64,000 bases of DNA from contig CAVOXA010000014.1 in assembly GCA_963700285.1 (NCBI GenBank), positions 544,001 through 608,000 on the forward strand, written 5' to 3'. Positions 11,511 through 25,383 of this stretch are shown piece after piece (the first letter of the stretch is position 1; each line of letters opens with the position of its first letter). Source of the stretch: an uncultured Chloroflexia bacterium. GTDB taxonomy: Bacteria; Chloroflexota; Anaerolineae; JAAYZQ01. A model generated the notes under the pieces. It did not search any database and was not told the origin of the DNA. It worked only from the letters and a program-made list of their open reading frames with translations. Position numbers and translations under genes: made by a program.

Positions 11511-13919
11511 CTAGCGGTTGTAGGTTTCCTCATAAACAGCGAACCACTGGGGCAGGTCCGCCCAGCGCTCTTCCCGCTGCTGCTCGCGTTGCGCTTCTTC
11601 GTATGCCGACAGTCGCCGAAAGATCTCGGCCTGTACCCGCTGCGGATCGGGCACCCAATCGAAGTCCAGCCTGCCCTCGGCGCCGGCCGTATAGATGACT
11701 ACCGTGCCATAGTTCAGAAGCGTGGCAATCGGGTTGGGGATCTCGAAGCTGACGTTCTGGATCCGGTCAAATTTGGTCTCTTTGGTCCGCCGCCTAAAGC
11801 CAGCCGGCAATGCCTCGATGTCGATAAGCAAGTCATTGGTGACAATGTACTGGTCATTGCCCCAGTCTACCCAGTTCCACCAGAACCAAAAGCTGGATCC
11901 CGCCAGGAGGAAGAACAGCAAAAGACCAACCAGCGGCGATGTGCCCTCCAGTACCCAGAAATAAGCCACAGCCGCCACCAGTGAGGCAGCCACAGCCAGG
12001 GAGGGAAGCCAGATGCGCCCCAGCAGCCGGATCCAGTGTTTCCGCCAGATGATGCGATCGTCCAGGGCCCTCTCCATCCAGAAGAACCGTCCCAACGTAG
12101 CGTCGTCAATACGCTGCCACATACTTGGACCGGATGGGGGCGGGTCCGGATCCAGGGCGAGCGACGGGACGGCCGGACGGGGGACCGTTGGTCGAATCCC
12201 CATCCGGATGCTCTTTTCCAGCTTGTCGCGGATCTTTCGCTGTATCTGAACCGTCTTGCCGGCCAGCGCCCGGTCCTTCTGCACAAAGATCTCATCGCGC
12301 ACCGATTCTGGATTCAGTAGATAGTTGAAAGTCACACGTGAAGCGCCGATAGCCGCCGCCGTATCAATCACCAGGGTACCAAAGCCAAGGATATTTCCGA
12401 CGAGATGGCGGTCTATGTTCATATTCTGGATCTTGTCCAACGGTGTCTCATCCCGCGTCTCTCGTATCAGCAAGGTCTTTTCGAGGTGAGCTACCCGCGC
12501 TGTAGTGACATAGTAGTAGTCATTCAGCCAATCAAGGAGAATCCATACGGACCACAAAAAGACCAGGCCAAGCAAGGCATAGCCGATGGGCCGTAGGCCG
12601 CCATCGCTCGTCCACAAGAACAGGGCGACGACAAAGAAAAAGAAGGGCAATACCAGCCTGCTGGTCAAACGGAACCAGTGACGCCGACGGCGCAGCACTA
12701 CTTGCTCATCTGGGTCCAACCACGAGGGACGATCCAGCGTCCACCTGGCCCTGACCTCCTCCCTGGGCACCATCTTGTCGACGAGATCTGGACGCTGCTG
12801 CAGATACTGCTCCAAGTCACTGCGAGTCAGGTAGAACCAGTTGGCCTGGGTCGTGGCTTCGATGGTCACGTCACGGGCATCTCCCAGAAAGAGTGAAGAC
12901 TCACCTACTGCGTTGCCCGCCTTGAGATAGGCCACGGGACGCTCCCTACCGTCCTCGTCACGGGCGCGCACAATGGCTTCACCTTCATACAGCATGTACA
13001 GGGTTGGGTCGACCTCACCCTGCCGGTAGAGGACATCCCCCGGCCGGTAGTGAGCCAGGCCCACGTAGCCTGCCAGGTGCTTCAGCTCCTCGTCGGTCAA
13101 GTCGGAGCAAATTCGGGTCCGGCGCAGGTGATCGAGAACATCATGTCGCTCAAGATGTTGCTCAAAACTCGGCTGGAGTTCTCGCAACCAGTCAAAAGCA
13201 TCGGCATTCAGGCGAAAAAGGTGAACTTCTGAGGCTGCTTCAGCCGTTGCCCGGCGGATGGTGTTCCTCATCAGCGCATATCGCCCGAAGAAACTTCCAG
13301 CCGACAGGTACTTGGGCCAAGTTTGCCGGCCAGGGACGTTCCCCGAAGTGCGCTCAACCACCTGGCCTGTATCTATGATATAGAAGGCATCAGCCGGCTC
13401 GCCCTGCCGAAAGATGATCTGGCCGGCAGGGAACACCAAATGCCGTACCAGGTCAGCCACGTGAAAAAGCTGCTCCACTGTAAATCCGCCAAAGAGGGGA
13501 ATGGCTAGTAGACGATTTACCACGCGGACTCGCCGCAGACGCTCCTCAAGCCTGGGATACATGGCAAGAAGCGTCTTGAAATCGTCGGCCCCGATCACCA
13601 GCGCTTGAACGTACTGGGTCGTCTTGGCAGTGGTTTGGCAGAGCGTGTCATCCATCAGCTGCCGGTGACCCACATAGTCCCCGGCCTGCGTTCTCCGGCG
13701 CTGGATGTCCGCGCCGGCAGCACCCTTGCCGACCTCCTGGACCCCACCTGCCTCAAGCAGGTAAAAAAGATCCGGTACTTCACCCTGCCGAAACAAAATT
13801 GTACCAGAGGGAAACGTATCTTCTCTGACAAAAAGACTGACCCGCCCGAGTTCGTCCTCAGAAAAGTCGTCAAAGATCCAGAACTGGCTCAGGCGCTCAG
13901 CGAAAGTTTTTTCAGCCAT
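11511..13919 (-). CDS. membrane protein with three cyclic-nucleotide-binding domains and two TM-pair/bacterial PH (bPH_2) modules
   Basis: Three 'F/YRQGE...F/LY...G' CNB repeats, then two 'RR/KHW-TM-TM-DW.ND.Y.VT...IQN...G.LVI.TA' modules. Confidence 0.85.
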   Translation of the reverse strand: MAEKTFAERLSQFWIFDDFSEDELGRVSLFVREDTFPSGTILFRQGEVPDLFYLLEAGGVQEVGKGAAGADIQRRRTQAGDYVGHRQLMDDTLCQTTAKTTQYVQALVIGADDFKTLLAMYPRLEERLRRVRVVNRLLAIPLFGGFTVEQLFHVADLVRHLVFPAGQIIFRQGEPADAFYIIDTGQVVERTSGNVPGRQTWPKYLSAGSFFGRYALMRNTIRRATAEAASEVHLFRLNADAFDWLRELQPSFEQHLERHDVLDHLRRTRICSDLTDEELKHLAGYVGLAHYRPGDVLYRQGEVDPTLYMLYEGEAIVRARDEDGRERPVAYLKAGNAVGESSLFLGDARDVTIEATTQANWFYLTRSDLEQYLQQRPDLVDKMVPREEVRARWTLDRPSWLDPDEQVVLRRRRHWFRLTSRLVLPFFFFVVALFLWTSDGGLRPIGYALLGLVFLWSVWILLDWLNDYYYVTTARVAHLEKTLLIRETRDETPLDKIQNMNIDRHLVGNILGFGTLVIDTAAAIGASRVTFNYLLNPESVRDEIFVQKDRALAGKTVQIQRKIRDKLEKSIRMGIRPTVPRPAVPSLALDPDPPPSGPSMWQRIDDATLGRFFWMERALDDRIIWRKHWIRLLGRIWLPSLAVAASLVAAVAYFWVLEGTSPLVGLLLFFLLAGSSFWFWWNWVDWGNDQYIVTNDLLIDIEALPAGFRRRTKETKFDRIQNVSFEIPNPIATLLNYGTVVIYTAGAEGRLDFDWVPDPQRVQAEIFRRLSAYEEAQREQQREERWADLPQWFAVYEETYNR

Positions 13920-20929: not shown

Positions 20930-21183
20930 TAGGGCTTGGATACAGACTCCGGGGCAGCCGCCGGACCGGAGCAGGCAAGATTATAGCACAAGCTTGCTAC
21001 TTTCTCCAAGGCCGGACAAGATGTGGGCAGACATGCCGCTAACCGGTTGACCGATGGATGGGGTTGCGATGCCTCCTCCCTTTTTCTTGTGGGGGGAAGC
21101 TATGATATAATGGCGCCTGGCCCGGAATGGACCACGAGCTGGATAGGGAGCGTGTGGCTCCCGTGGCGTGAGGAGAATCAGAA

Positions 21184-23505
21184 ATGATAGCAGAAGAACT
21201 GTTGGCCCAGATCGAGATCTTTCGCCAGGTGCCGGAGGACATTGGTCGTGAAATCCGGGAGAAAGCAGAGATAGCCCCATACGCGCCAGGTGAGATTATT
21301 GTTCCGGCCGGCCAACCCTTTACCTTTTTCGGTGTTCTGCTGCAGGGACAGGCCGATGCCTACTTGCCCGAGCAAGAGGCGGAACCACGTAGCATAGAGA
21401 CCTTTAGAGTCGGCTCGACCGTGGGCGAGATGTCACTTTTGACCGGTCAGAATGCGCCGGTGGACGTGATCGCCACCACACCCTGCCGGGTGCTGCTTGT
21501 TCCCGTAGATCTTTTCCACCACTGGGTGCAGGCCGATCCCACCTCATTGCAGACCTTTTCCAGGTCTGTCGCCCGGCGCAGTGTTCTGGTTGAGAAAGGG
21601 CTGCAGGTACAGACCCAATCGGCGGCCGAGCTGGATGCGGTCCAAGATCCCTATGGTCTGAGCCTAACACCCGACGAACCGCAGAAACTCCTCGTCATCA
21701 ACCTACGAACCGGTAGCCTCAAATACCGCTACTTTGACACGGAAGACGAAGCCAGGAATGTCGAGGGGCAGGTAGAATGGATCGGCGAGCCCCGCGCCCT
21801 GCAAAGCCACACCACGGCCAGCGGAGAACATACTTTTGCGCTAGGTCAAGTTGACCACCGCGAGGCCCTTGACATAGCGCTGCAGCGGCTGGTAGGTCTC
21901 GAGCCAGGTGGCCCGGAAAGCTTGGCTGAAATCACGGCTGTGGGCCACCGGGTCGTGCATGGTGGCGAAAAGTACTCCAGCCCCGTGGTAATTGACAGAG
22001 AGGTACTCACAGACATCCGCAGTTATGCGCATTTGGCCCCTCTTCACAACGCCATGCACGCCCTGGGCATCGAGTGGTGTCAGGAAATCTTGCCCGATGT
22101 GAGGCACATCGCTGTCTTTGATACTGCATTCCACCAGACGATGCCGCCCTATGCCTATCGATACGCGCTACCCGAGGAGCTGTATGAAAAGGATGGCATC
22201 CGCCGCTACGGGTTCCACGGAACGTCGCATCAATACGTGGCATTGATGGCAGCAACCCACTTGAGGAAGCGGTTCTCTCGGCTCAAGATCATCACCTGCC
22301 ATCTGGGCGAGGGCGCGTCGGCCTGCGCCATTGACCATGGCCGGTCGATCGATACCAGCATGGGCCTCACCCCTCTCGAAGGATTGGTGATGGTCACCCG
22401 ATCTGGAGATATCGATCCCGCCGTGGTTACTTATCTGATGCGCAAGGGGTTATCGGCCGACGAAATAGAGCACCTTCTTCTGCGCGAAAGCGGTTTGAAG
22501 GGCCTCTCAAACCTATCTGGCGACACGCGCGAGATCCCCGATGCCGCCAATGCGGGCGACCCCAAGGCCATGCTTGCCGCCGAGACCTTTGCCTACCGTC
22601 TGCGCAAGTACATTGGCGGCTACTATGCGGCGCTGGGCGGATTGGATGTCCTGGTATTCACTGGGGGGATCGGTGAGAACGCTGCCGGGATACGGTCCAT
22701 GGCCTGCACCGATCTCTGGGGGCTGGGGATCTTGATAGACGCTGTCAAGAATCGGGCCGTTCGCGATGCGAGCGAGGGGGTCGTGGACATCTCACACCCT
22801 GACTCAAAGGTCAAGGTGCTGATCATTCACTCTGATGCATCACGCATGATCGCCCGCGAGACAATCCGCGTCCTGGGCTACGAAGCGATTACCAGACAGC
22901 TGCAGGCCAGCCAGATCCCCATTCCTATCGGAGTTTCTGCCCACCACGTCCACCTTAGCCAGGAGCACGCAGAGCAGTTGTTTGGAAAGGGCCACCAGCT
23001 CACCCCTCACGTGCCTTTGTCGCAGCCCGGCCAGTATGCCGCCCAGCAATCTGTGCGGCTCACAGGCCCACGGGGCAGCATTGACCGGGTACGCGTGCTA
23101 GGCCCCGTACGCAAGGAAAGCCAGGTGGAGGTCTCGCGTACAGAAGGGTTTCGTCTCGGCATCCACGCCCCGATCCGCATGTCGGGTGACCTCGATGGGA
23201 CACCGGGGCTCATGCTGGAAGGGCCCGCCGGCCAGGTCGAGATCGAGAACGGCGTCATCTATGCCCAAAGACACCTACACATGACGCCTACGGATGCTCG
23301 AAAGCTGGGGCTAGAAAACCACGACGTCGTTCGCCTGCGTGTGGAAGGCGAACGCGAGCTGATCTTTGGCGACGTGGCTGTGCGTGTCTCTCCCAAATTC
23401 CAACTGGAATTCCACCTGGACACCGACGAAGCTAATGCTGCCGAACTCAACACCGGAGATGTGGCTTACCTGGACGGTATCCAGAAACGGGGGAACCGGG
23501 GATAG
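21184..23505 (+). CDS. ackA: cNMP-binding domain + acetate/propionate kinase + PduL phosphotransacylase fusion
   Basis: N-terminal CNB domain (GEMSLL). Kinase motifs GHRVVHGG, APLHN, VFDTAFHQ, RYGFHGTSH, FTGGIGEN. PduL motifs GVSAHHVHLS, LSQPGQYA, QRHLHM, FHLDTDEANAA. Extended -10 TGATATAAT at 21103. Confidence 0.9.
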   Translation: MIAEELLAQIEIFRQVPEDIGREIREKAEIAPYAPGEIIVPAGQPFTFFGVLLQGQADAYLPEQEAEPRSIETFRVGSTVGEMSLLTGQNAPVDVIATTPCRVLLVPVDLFHHWVQADPTSLQTFSRSVARRSVLVEKGLQVQTQSAAELDAVQDPYGLSLTPDEPQKLLVINLRTGSLKYRYFDTEDEARNVEGQVEWIGEPRALQSHTTASGEHTFALGQVDHREALDIALQRLVGLEPGGPESLAEITAVGHRVVHGGEKYSSPVVIDREVLTDIRSYAHLAPLHNAMHALGIEWCQEILPDVRHIAVFDTAFHQTMPPYAYRYALPEELYEKDGIRRYGFHGTSHQYVALMAATHLRKRFSRLKIITCHLGEGASACAIDHGRSIDTSMGLTPLEGLVMVTRSGDIDPAVVTYLMRKGLSADEIEHLLLRESGLKGLSNLSGDTREIPDAANAGDPKAMLAAETFAYRLRKYIGGYYAALGGLDVLVFTGGIGENAAGIRSMACTDLWGLGILIDAVKNRAVRDASEGVVDISHPDSKVKVLIIHSDASRMIARETIRVLGYEAITRQLQASQIPIPIGVSAHHVHLSQEHAEQLFGKGHQLTPHVPLSQPGQYAAQQSVRLTGPRGSIDRVRVLGPVRKESQVEVSRTEGFRLGIHAPIRMSGDLDGTPGLMLEGPAGQVEIENGVIYAQRHLHMTPTDARKLGLENHDVVRLRVEGERELIFGDVAVRVSPKFQLEFHLDTDEANAAELNTGDVAYLDGIQKRGNRG

Positions 23506-23542: not shown

Positions 23543-23571
23543 TTGTCAAACAACACCAAAGCTGTTATAAT
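23543..23571 (+). promoter_or_regulatory. sigma70-type promoter of the envelope-hydrolase operon
   Basis: TTGTCA-N17-TATAAT with extended TG. Confidence 0.65.
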
Positions 23572-23616: not shown

Positions 23617-25383
23617 ATGGGTGAACTGGGAGAGCGGCTGCGTGCCGCACGCGAAGAGAAGAAAATGTCACTGGATGAGGTCGCAGTCGCGACCAAGATT
23701 CCGCTGAACTATCTGGAGGCTCTAGAAAACGAATCATTCGATTCTTTCACCAGCGATCTACATGCCCGGGGTTTTCTGCGGAACTATGCCTCCTACCTGG
23801 GCTTTGATCCGGATGAAACTGTGGACCTGCACGAGCGAGGTCCAAGCGATCCCAAACGAAAAAACCCGCGCGTCAAACAAGAGCCGGTCGCGAAAACCAT
23901 GGAAAGAGGCCGCAGAGGGCGATCCTTTTTCGTTGCTGATGCCCTGCTGGCCCTGGTCGTGGTCTCTGTCTTGGGGCTGGTTGGATTTTCTGTATACCAG
24001 CGCCAGAACCCCGAGGTGGTCACCCCAACGCCCGGCCCGCCCCCCACGCCCACAGTCACACCCATGCCCATCTATGAAGGCACGGCGTACCAGATGGACG
24101 TCTACTTGAACTACGCTGAACATCGGCTGTCCGTACAGCAGCAGATCGACTATACCAATGCCACCAGCGAAACGCTGCCTAATCTAATCCTCAACGTCCA
24201 TCCGAATCGGGGCAAGAACATCTTTGAACTAAATGACATCAAGGTGGACATGGGCGACGGAGAGTTGGTTGAGCCTGAGGTTTTCCCCCTGGACGTGACC
24301 CTACGGGTGGAACTGCCCACCGAGATCAAACCCAATGAACACGTGGCCCTCTACCTGGACTATACCCTCGACCTGCCCAAGATCAACCCGGATGAGGAAT
24401 TCAGCAGTGGCGGCTTTGGCTATTCCCAGCGTGCCGTGAGCCTGGGCAATTGGTACCCTGTTCTGGCTCCCTACCGTGAGGACAAGGGCTGGTACGGGCT
24501 GACCCACTTTCCTGTAGGCGACCCATACATCACGGAGGTGGCCGACTATAGCGTGAACATCACCACCACGGAGGACATTGTCATCGCCGGCACCGGTCAG
24601 GAGAGGCGCACAGACGGTCAGTGGCACTATGAGGCCGAACAGGCCCGCTCATTTGCATTTGCCGCCAGCGACAAATACCTGGAATCGAGCGACCGGGTTG
24701 GCAAAGTCACCGTGCACTCTTATTATTTCCCCACAAATGAGGAGTCGGGCCAGGTCGCCCTCGAAACGGCGGGCCGGGCGCTGGAGCTGTACTCCGAGCT
24801 GTACGGCCCCTATCCATACTCTGACTACCGCATCGCAGAGACCGAGTTCGCCGGGGGCATGGAGTTCTCTGGTCTCACCTTCATCGGCTCGGTATTCTAT
24901 GACGAATATGATGGCACGAACCGTACACCGCTCATCCCGCTGGCCGCTCACGAGGTTTCTCACCAGTGGTTTTTCGATCTTGTCGGAAACGACCAGGTGA
25001 CGGAACCCTGGCTTGACGAAGCGCTGGCCGAATACAGTGCTTTCCTTTACTACGAACGGTATCTACCGGACGACACCGACTGGTGGTGGAACTATGCTGT
25101 TGAACAATGGGCACCTACGGGCATCATTGACGCACGCATTCACGAGTTTCGCAACAACCGCGACTATTTGGATGCCGTCTACCGGCGCGGCGCCCAGTTC
25201 GTCCAGGATCTTAGGACAACCATGGGCGATCCTGCGTTCTTTGCTTTTTTGCAGGAGTACCAGCGCCGCAACGCGCATCGCCTGGTCAAATCGCGGGAAT
25301 TCTTTTCCCTGGTCCAAGAGTTCACGACTGCCGATCTGGTGCCACTCCAAGAGGAGTACTTTCGCCAGAGGATAATTCCCTAA
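23617..25383 (+). CDS. RodZ-like HTH + TM + M1-family (gluzincin) metallopeptidase
   Basis: LGERLRAAREEKKMSLDEVAVATKI...RGFLRNYASYLG; single TM; GGMEF, HEVSHQWF, WLDEALAEY, VYRRG. Confidence 0.85.
   Translation: MGELGERLRAAREEKKMSLDEVAVATKIPLNYLEALENESFDSFTSDLHARGFLRNYASYLGFDPDETVDLHERGPSDPKRKNPRVKQEPVAKTMERGRRGRSFFVADALLALVVVSVLGLVGFSVYQRQNPEVVTPTPGPPPTPTVTPMPIYEGTAYQMDVYLNYAEHRLSVQQQIDYTNATSETLPNLILNVHPNRGKNIFELNDIKVDMGDGELVEPEVFPLDVTLRVELPTEIKPNEHVALYLDYTLDLPKINPDEEFSSGGFGYSQRAVSLGNWYPVLAPYREDKGWYGLTHFPVGDPYITEVADYSVNITTTEDIVIAGTGQERRTDGQWHYEAEQARSFAFAASDKYLESSDRVGKVTVHSYYFPTNEESGQVALETAGRALELYSELYGPYPYSDYRIAETEFAGGMEFSGLTFIGSVFYDEYDGTNRTPLIPLAAHEVSHQWFFDLVGNDQVTEPWLDEALAEYSAFLYYERYLPDDTDWWWNYAVEQWAPTGIIDARIHEFRNNRDYLDAVYRRGAQFVQDLRTTMGDPAFFAFLQEYQRRNAHRLVKSREFFSLVQEFTTADLVPLQEEYFRQRIIP

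Follow-up and report, generated by a model that had tools for sequence, protein, structure and literature searches.

We analysed a 64,000-nucleotide stretch of DNA (hereafter the window) from an uncultured Chloroflexia bacterium (GTDB lineage Bacteria; Chloroflexota; Anaerolineae; JAAYZQ01), comprising positions 544,001 to 608,000 of the forward strand of contig CAVOXA010000014.1 in the NCBI GenBank assembly GCA_963700285.1. Within the window, a single open frame at 21184-23505 (+) runs from ATG to TAG with zero internal stops and encodes a 773-residue protein, in which a cyclic-nucleotide-binding (CNB)-like domain, an acetate-kinase-like domain, and a PduL phosphotransacylase domain follow one another. 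The original prediction took this protein for a complete acyl-CoA-to-ATP pathway in one chain, placed under second-messenger control. The residues of the three domains suggest a different picture, to which we assign a probability of roughly 0.55, in which an active phosphotransacylase, an acetate-kinase pseudoenzyme, and a sensor domain without the phosphate-binding arginine together form a regulatory module, with ATP being produced by a separate acetate kinase (AckA). The features of the locus are as follows, the reference residues being given in M. thermophila AckA numbering.

21103..21111, + strand: putative extended -10 promoter-like element TGnTATAAT, read from the sequence and absent from the promoter-match list
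21170..21175, + strand: Shine-Dalgarno-like GAGGAG, 8 nt 5' of the ATG
21184..23505, + strand: CNB-like / acetate-kinase-like / PduL fusion gene (open reading frame, profile and homologue searches)
21184..21588, + strand: cyclic-nucleotide-binding-fold domain, aa 1-135, without the phosphate-binding arginine (Ala91, codon 21454; Pfam and alignments)
21589..21681, + strand: linker, containing the last part of a long helix predicted for aa 119-151, plus the near-invariant DPYGLxL (aa 155-161; alignment and model)
21682..22875, + strand: acetate-kinase-fold domain, aa 167-564 (profile, alignment to 1G99)
21706, + strand: R175 in place of G9 (1G99 alignment)
22309, + strand: E376 in place of N211 (1G99 alignment)
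22393, + strand: V404 in place of G239 (1G99 alignment)
22837, + strand: A552 in place of E384 (1G99 alignment)
22918..23472, + strand: PduL phosphotransacylase domain, aa 579-763 (profile, alignment to 5CUO)

All three Pfam cut-offs were passed by the matches of cNMP_binding (PF00027) at aa 33-116 (E 4e-13, 49.6 bits with a cut-off of 27.5), Acetate_kinase (PF00871) at aa 168-558 (E 6e-134), and PTAC (PF06130) at aa 581-755 (E 6e-76, 254.6 bits with a cut-off of 25). NCBIfam and PDB searches agree with this layout. The kinase domain passed TIGR00016 (433 vs 293.4 bits) and the PduL domain passed PRK15070 (263 vs 209), and the PDB matches listed each span one domain only. The AlphaFold monomer, with a predicted local distance difference test (pLDDT) of 75.4 and a predicted template-modelling score (pTM) of 0.62, is of low confidence in the likely dimer face but confirmed the folds, which match acetate kinases and PduL. 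The uninterrupted frame and the presence of three domains in one chain stand as originally described: the architecture recurs in 119 of the top 120 homologue clusters (70-91% identity), and independent genomes carry uninterrupted full-length copies, so the fusion is not an assembly artefact. The named clusters belong to Anaerolineae/Chloroflexota, and the source databases name the homologues only 'acetate kinase'.

The residues of the kinase domain were numbered by a hand count on the 1G99 alignment, checked against the genome's own AckA. N7, S12, K14, R91, V93, L122, H123, D148, F179, H180, P232, R241, D283, R285, and G331 are kept, and the acyl-phosphate side of the fold is intact, with R91, R241, H123, D148, and H180 as well as the pocket residues V93, L122, F179, and P232. 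We take H123, D148, F179, and H180 to have their presumed roles in acetate kinase; the roles of R91 and R241 and of V93, L122, and P232 in the acetate pocket follow the passages on these residues in PMC6461089 and PMC4390882. The replacements of Gly9, Asn211, Gly239, and Glu384 listed above are accompanied by S10->T, S11->G, N127->H, and E385->S553. In the PHOSPHATE1 motif NxGSSSxK, the Asn, S12, and the Lys are kept alongside G9R, S10T, and S11G. The domain departs from AckA at PHOSPHATE1, at Asn211 of PHOSPHATE2, and at Gly239 of LOOP3, and agrees with it at ADENOSINE (G331-I332) and LOOP4; G331, D283, and R285 are present in 125/125 members of its own sub-family and relaxed in the sister sub-family.

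The replacements are highly conserved. Among 125 close homologues, R175 occurs in 125, E376 in 123, V404 in 123, and A552 in 124, and the position of Glu384 holds Pro in one; no member has Glu there. A sister sub-family (n=44, ~57% identical) has Arg (43), Glu (43), Pro (44), and Trp (43, with Ser in 1) at positions 9, 211, 239, and 384, respectively. Over both sub-families, R175 is found in 168 and E376 in 166 of 169 members, and Glu384 is gone in all 169, with Ala or Trp in 167. The same four positions read R/T/C/P in three other genomes (G104, G062, and the partial copy of G143), and R/D/G/D and K/E/M/G in two paralogues of G052. Because the replacements at Glu384 differ between lineages (A, W, P, D, G), they look like loss rather than relocation of the ligand. 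As a control, the kinase-only proteins among 150 representatives at 50% clustering keep Glu384 in 109 of 110 cases, G9 in 104, G239 in 97, and N211 in 88, and all 26 stand-alone AckAs examined from fusion genomes keep N211, G239, and E384. Glu384 is also kept in 18/20 Ack-PduL and 14/20 CNB-Ack(-PduL) representatives, the query counted, so the three-domain design, judged by these residues, exists both in canonical-kinase forms (with Smithella/Syntrophales labels) and in altered forms. We collected 38 canonical fusions, which serve as a contrast set and not as a frequency, since they were picked by motif and 30 came from two 90% clusters.

The functional role of Glu384 is taken from the mutant data given in PMC6461089, where P. 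gingivalis Ack E385A (equivalent to E384, a believed metal ligand, of the M. thermophila enzyme, MtAck) had no detectable activity and R91A and R241A retained 0.6 and 3.9%. According to the sections of PMC4390882 on MtAck, Asn211 touches the beta-phosphate and bonds to Gly239, and N211S, N211T, G239A, and G239S yielded 4.4, 20, 61, and 4.6 units vs 883, activity being cut ~190-fold by G239S, ~200-fold by N211S, and ~44-fold by N211T (table 1 there). A pyrophosphate (PPi)-type kinase, as in Entamoeba, is ruled out: HLGEGAS has the canonical length without an extra PHOSPHATE2 Gly, and GGIGEN is not occluded.

The altered domain evolves under constraint. For the fused kinase domain, the median ratio of nonsynonymous to synonymous substitution rates (dN/dS) was 0.126 at an amino acid identity of 0.79 (91 pairs, 14 genomes), compared with 0.124 and 0.77 for the stand-alone ackA of the same 14 genomes and 0.112 and 0.80 for the PduL domain, all being rough values with synonymous sites close to saturation. 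Neutral decay of the kinase domain is ruled out by a dN/dS equal to that of stand-alone ackA. In a first tree, with the trait columns included, the carriers of E211 grouped together at 1.0. After removal of the trait columns, 14 of 16 altered Anaerolineae rows grouped at a Shimodaira-Hasegawa-like approximate likelihood ratio test (SH-aLRT) support of 85, all 16 at 32, and the E384 state needed two changes over 43 rows. A single origin of the altered kinase in the Anaerolineae lineage is possible, not proven.

The PduL domain appears fully equipped. Mapped via the 5CUO alignment and the residues named in the corresponding part of PMC4784909, the six zinc ligands H588, H590, E649, H697, H699, and H744 (= H48, H50, E109, H157, H159, H204) as well as R643 (= R103) and S667 (= S127) are kept in 120/120 homologues. 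S585, R637, and N751 are kept here too, and the reference positions S45, R97, L99, N211, Q74, Q77, and R194 are invariant in 120/120 homologues; only the Lys70 position varies among the active-site positions compared. The description of this domain as intact was therefore borne out residue by residue, and it is likely an active phosphotransacylase. It is the sole PF06130 match in a profile search of the contigs of the genome. Some three-domain relatives have lost PduL zinc ligands (P0129/P0308 = G052:C105, P0133, P0149): both enzyme domains are altered in P0129, whose genome also holds a second fusion and a canonical ackA, and P0149 combines a canonical kinase with a degenerate PduL. Judging from these relatives, either enzyme can be lost while the three-domain architecture stays.

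A search of the genome for separate ackA, pta, and bacterial microcompartment (BMC) loci, proposed along with the original prediction, found a canonical ackA on contig C6 at 84398-85666, a long Pta on contig C1, a butyrate kinase, and Ptb-like genes, together with shell genes on contigs C1 and C10. Among 41 relatives, 19 of the 23 fusion genomes carry a canonical ackA besides the fusion (the copy in G020 is without its N-terminal part), as do 7/7 further fusion genomes from a class-wide Anaerolineae sample, giving 26/30 in total. In that sample, in which three candidates were scored per genome and kin are not independent, stand-alone ackA occurs in 17/18 fusion genomes and in at most 31/283 others, 2 of these 31 possibly being divergent fusions. 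The search for a Pta like that of our genome succeeded in 9 of the 23 fusion genomes and gave nothing in 14; 13 of these 14, among them genomes 91-95% complete, have a stand-alone ackA, so the fused PduL is likely the partner of that AckA. The co-occurrence fits a division of labour between the fused PduL and the separate AckA.

The sensor domain differs from cyclic-nucleotide receptors at a key position. Its cassette reads GEMSLLTGQNAP, with Ala91 at the position of the PKA arginine. The cassette arginine is found in 0/121 close and 0/20 distant fusions, and in 14 of the 24 other CNB matches of the genome. The position is A, S, or T, mostly with D, N, or E three residues later (18/20 distant fusions), and the cassette glutamate is 64% conserved in close relatives. 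According to parts of 10.1101/2024.04.23.590730 and PMC5806680, CNB-type domains without this arginine do not respond to cAMP and bind other ligands such as heme, 2-oxoglutarate, chlorophenolacetate, or peptides. Profile searches identified 8 nucleotide-cyclase and 25 CNB matches in the genome, so a cyclic nucleotide monophosphate exists as a signal in the organism, but this sensor domain likely does not read it. The second-messenger control originally proposed is not supported, the arginine being absent in 141/141 relatives examined. An ESM Atlas search returned generic CNB clusters only.

The most conserved part of the sensor is its outer face (aa 31-50). A complex predicted between aa 1-150 and a dimer of aa 160-570, using an alignment of our own and two pieces of one chain, scored 0.72, whereas the best of three controls scored 0.00; 116 of 157 solved complexes attain the mark for this score, as do 2 of 215 mismatched pairs. 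The runs agree in at least 90% of contacts, with a partner pLDDT of at least 83. The predicted interface involves residues 27-48, 100, and 105-108 of the sensor and 455-466, 501-525, and 538-540 of the kinase, does not cover the ligand pocket, and contacts the helix that follows the adenosine motif. Conservation in both sub-families is seen at 10 of the 23 interface positions of the sensor, vs 16/108 elsewhere in that domain. On the kinase side, W512, V521, H538, M506, and N456 are constant in this family but differ among 106 stand-alone kinases. The model supports, and does not show, docking of the sensor fold on the kinase fold, and the coupling of the two, which the original prediction had implied, gains some credit from it.

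From the residues, their conservation, and the gene co-occurrence, which are observations, we infer the activities, the ligand binding, and the direction of regulation in the following way. PduL would convert acetyl- or propionyl-CoA and Pi into acyl-phosphate and CoA, or catalyse the reverse reaction. The kinase fold likely still dimerises and scaffolds the dimer, and likely binds acyl-phosphate or the carboxylate through R256, R406, H345, and the acetate pocket, while being likely unable to position Mg-ADP. R175 and E376 lie on phosphate loops that face each other and may form a pair spanning the cleft where the nucleotide phosphate would otherwise sit. The arginine-less sensor, predicted to dock next to the helix after the adenosine motif, would relay the binding of a ligand other than cAMP or cGMP, and the acyl-phosphate would be handed to the separate canonical AckA, which likely makes ATP. 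In this scheme the fusion takes the place of Pta as one half of the Pta-AckA pathway. A more far-reaching version, which we hold tentatively and with the odds leaning against it, is that acetate-kinase pseudoenzymes with a cleft self-plugged by the Arg/Glu pair occur throughout Anaerolineae, where an acyl-phosphate sensor (or hydrolase) and an arginine-less CNB domain responding to some metabolite would gate the phosphotransacylase of the cell.

Several observations weigh against an inactive kinase within such a module. N7, K14, G331, D283, and R285 are kept in 124-125 of the 125 close homologues and S12 in 119, consistent with a domain that still binds nucleotides or is even catalytic. The ATP-using C. 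neoformans enzyme naturally has Ser in place of Asn211 (as mentioned in PMC4390882), as do 30 of the 38 canonical-looking fusions; mutant data do not always transfer. E376 could be a new metal ligand. As for the partners, a second ackA was not found in 4 of the 23 fusion genomes (77-91% complete), Ptb-type enzymes lie below the cut-off of the Pta search, and the genome has a Pta of its own, so that the fused PduL is not its only transacylase. The enrichment of conserved positions on the kinase side of the predicted interface is slight (11/22 vs 157/376), and clustering of the neighbourhoods (35 and 21 loci) revealed no conserved functional neighbour or pathway hint around the fusion.

Part of this evidence would also suit a compensated kinase that still transfers phosphate to ADP, in which E376 (and D551) replace Glu384 as the metal ligand and R175 helps to bind phosphates, resulting in a slower or gated two-step ATP pathway under ligand control. 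An acid at the loop position of E376 is found in active actin-fold ATPases, N7, K14, R91, R241, H180, D148, and the residues of the adenosine pocket hardly vary among the 125 homologues, the dN/dS equals that of real AckA, and R175 and E376 are common to both large sub-families. We nevertheless regard a compensated kinase as unlikely: no compensating acid is present in a related Anaerolineae lineage, since it has Thr at 211 and Pro at 384 (two full and one partial copies), the sister sub-family combines Trp at 384 and Pro at 239 with relaxed R285 and N335, and the fusion almost always shares its genome with a canonical ackA. The fully kept acyl-phosphate side, next to a metal/beta-phosphate side rebuilt with invariant new residues, might also point to new chemistry, the kinase fold passing the phosphate of PduL's acyl-phosphate to water or a non-nucleotide acceptor with E376 as base or transient acceptor. 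The protein would then act as a gated acyl-CoA hydrolase, a CoA-release valve without ATP formation, and the fusion would channel the acyl-phosphate intermediate. Strong purifying selection on the kinase domain agrees with this idea, and an altered acceptor has a precedent in the PPi-forming Entamoeba enzyme (described in part of PMC5517563). However, other copies in the lineage have T or D instead of E376, and the extra PHOSPHATE2 Gly and the occluded adenosine motif that mark the PPi type are absent. Wasting acyl-phosphate would also be a heavy expense for an anaerobe that lives by fermentation and would leave the association with a separate ackA unexplained. We regard such new chemistry as improbable.

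The model of a standard Ack-PduL pair under a cAMP or cGMP switch would explain why the three Pfam domains and TIGR00016 score above their cut-offs, and it could draw on the cyclase and CNB matches of the genome and on the GE motif of the cassette, present in this copy. The changes of Glu384, Gly239, Asn211, and Gly9, the missing cassette arginine, and the incomplete conservation of the cassette glutamate leave it with very little probability. The claim of a complete acyl-CoA-to-ATP pathway is not supported, given the Ala in place of Glu384 and the changed Asn211 and Gly239, and the genome encodes a canonical ackA, a pta, a butyrate kinase, and Ptb-like genes elsewhere. It may fit the sister canonical-kinase fusions, though these are also without the arginine; such fusions are found in syntrophic bacteria with Smithella and Syntrophales labels (P0126, P0127, P0128, and their clusters). 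An abstract (PMC4992975) deals with ATP formation in Syntrophus aciditrophicus without the usual Pta/Ack homologues, a setting in which the canonical-kinase fusions may matter.

A role of the fused PduL mainly in the sugar-phosphate-type microcompartment encoded on contig C10 is, to our judgment, highly improbable. This locus (C10:1507649-1513122; RpiB, DeoC, shell proteins, EutN, and aldehyde dehydrogenase) is without a transacylase gene, the fusion supplies the only PF06130 match of the genome, and shell genes occur in 21/23 fusion genomes. Yet 5 of the 18 fusion-free relatives carry shell genes with no PduL match, and G024 (93% complete) has the fusion with no shell gene found. The fusion never stands beside shell genes in the clustered loci, and it offers no free N-terminus for an encapsulation peptide. 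The features of a microcompartment PduL were not found: the shell genes lie on other contigs, and the N-terminus is taken by other domains, the fused PduL directly following the kinase fold without an N-terminal encapsulation extension. An obligate microcompartment link is unlikely as well, because of the five fusion-free genomes with shell genes. All five matches of the genome-wide BMC search are on C1 and C10, so the original remark that the window contains no shell genes holds, and the fusion lies away from them. A satellite shell locus (C1:865638-867987) adjoins a class II aldolase gene with an apparent frameshift in the assembly.

The fusion was found in 21/22 genomes of the same family, four copies being cut by contig ends and one having two in-frame stops, in 1/18 genomes of other families, and in 18 of the 301 genomes of the class-wide sample. 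As for the distribution of the domain architecture, a question raised with the original prediction, the three-domain chain is conserved across Anaerolineae and has relatives labelled Smithella or Syntrophales. A homologue search with aa 160-570 alone returned almost the same family as that with the whole protein. The copy with stops (G015:C15:620302-622620) carries two in-frame TAG codons and a scrambled stretch in the sensor domain, which represent an assembly error or a pseudogene. Other acetate-kinase fusions among the representatives (P0257, P0234, P0150, P0153) comprise receiver domain-Ack, Ack-Pta, PduL-Ack in the reverse order, and CNB-Ack without PduL. Separate but adjacent pduL and ackA genes, an unfused version of this pair, occur in other Anaerolineae (G038:C35, G083:C12, G089:C51, G123:C1, G215:C37, G285:C158). 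With three candidates scored per genome, any match to the fusion protein at E <= 1e-40 was seen in only 49/301 Anaerolineae genomes, which suggests that few members of the class have acetate kinase except in the families that bear the fusion.

The fusion gene is likely its own transcription unit because the upstream neighbour is divergent and a separate sigma-70 match (11/12) at 23543-23571 precedes the downstream gene. The commonest genuine neighbours of the fusion, each in subsets of the genomes, are queG, an alpha/beta hydrolase, NIF3, and PolX. Located 3' of the sigma-70 match, the frame at 23617-25383 (+) joins a RodZ-like HTH_25 domain via a membrane segment to an M1 peptidase domain. 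An 802-aa protein encoded elsewhere in the window (11511-13919, -) combines three CNB domains, two of them with the cassette arginine, with membrane segments and bacterial PH domains.

Neither the Ack-PduL fusion nor the channelling idea is new: the PduL section of Erbilgin et al. (2016, PMC4784909) already places PF06130 in multidomain proteins annotated as Ack and suggests substrate channelling. The fusion as such is published and common, and the notable feature is the conserved disarming of two of its three domains. If our reading is correct, this is a conserved, catalytically disarmed acetate kinase. We found no earlier description of the three-domain form or of an inactive acetate kinase in the open-access literature searched; the supplementary alignments of PMC4784909 and PMC5517563 might include such proteins. 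The pseudoenzyme gate would control acetyl-phosphate/CoA flux in a new way that the database name 'acetate kinase' conceals. Because the sources give the protein only this name, metabolic models of Anaerolineae derived from genomes would count an ATP step that is not provided and miss a transacylase that is. The sister fusions with a canonical kinase would offer a natural active/inactive pair, and the arginine-less sensor common to all fusions would define the hunt for a ligand.

The protein can be compared with several known systems. It shares 48% identity with M. thermophila AckA (1G99/1TUY; Foldseek template-modelling score 0.84 to 1G99), with the acyl-phosphate residues, the acetate pocket, and the adenosine motif in common, but differs from it by G9R, S10T, S11G, N127H, N211E, G239V, E384A, and E385S. 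The PPi-forming acetate kinase of Entamoeba histolytica, as portrayed in the sections of PMC5517563 on its active site, likewise has an acetate-kinase fold with an altered phosphoryl-acceptor site; here, in contrast, the GGIGEN adenosine motif is canonical and the changes fall on the metal and beta-phosphate positions. The Rhodopseudomonas palustris PduL (5CUO/5CUP) is 48% identical and shares the six Zn ligands, Arg103, Ser127, Ser45, Arg97, Leu99, Asn211, Gln74/77, and Arg194, whereas the PduL studied here varies at the Lys70 position among its homologues, forms the C-terminal domain of a fusion, and is encoded outside a microcompartment locus. The CNB fold without the cyclic-phosphate arginine is common to the CNB-homology domains of KCNH channels, family 2B encapsulins, CooA, CprK, and NtcA (from the relevant parts of PMC5806680 and 10.1101/2024.04.23.590730), from which our sensor differs by its attachment to a metabolic enzyme, by the small residue at the arginine position, and by the mostly D, N, or E three residues on. 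The Ack-PduL proteins of PMC4784909 also join PF06130 to acetate kinase, have no encapsulation peptide, and were proposed to channel their intermediate; the passage of that paper devoted to them reports no assay of such a protein and mentions neither an N-terminal CNB-like domain nor a kinase domain without Glu384.

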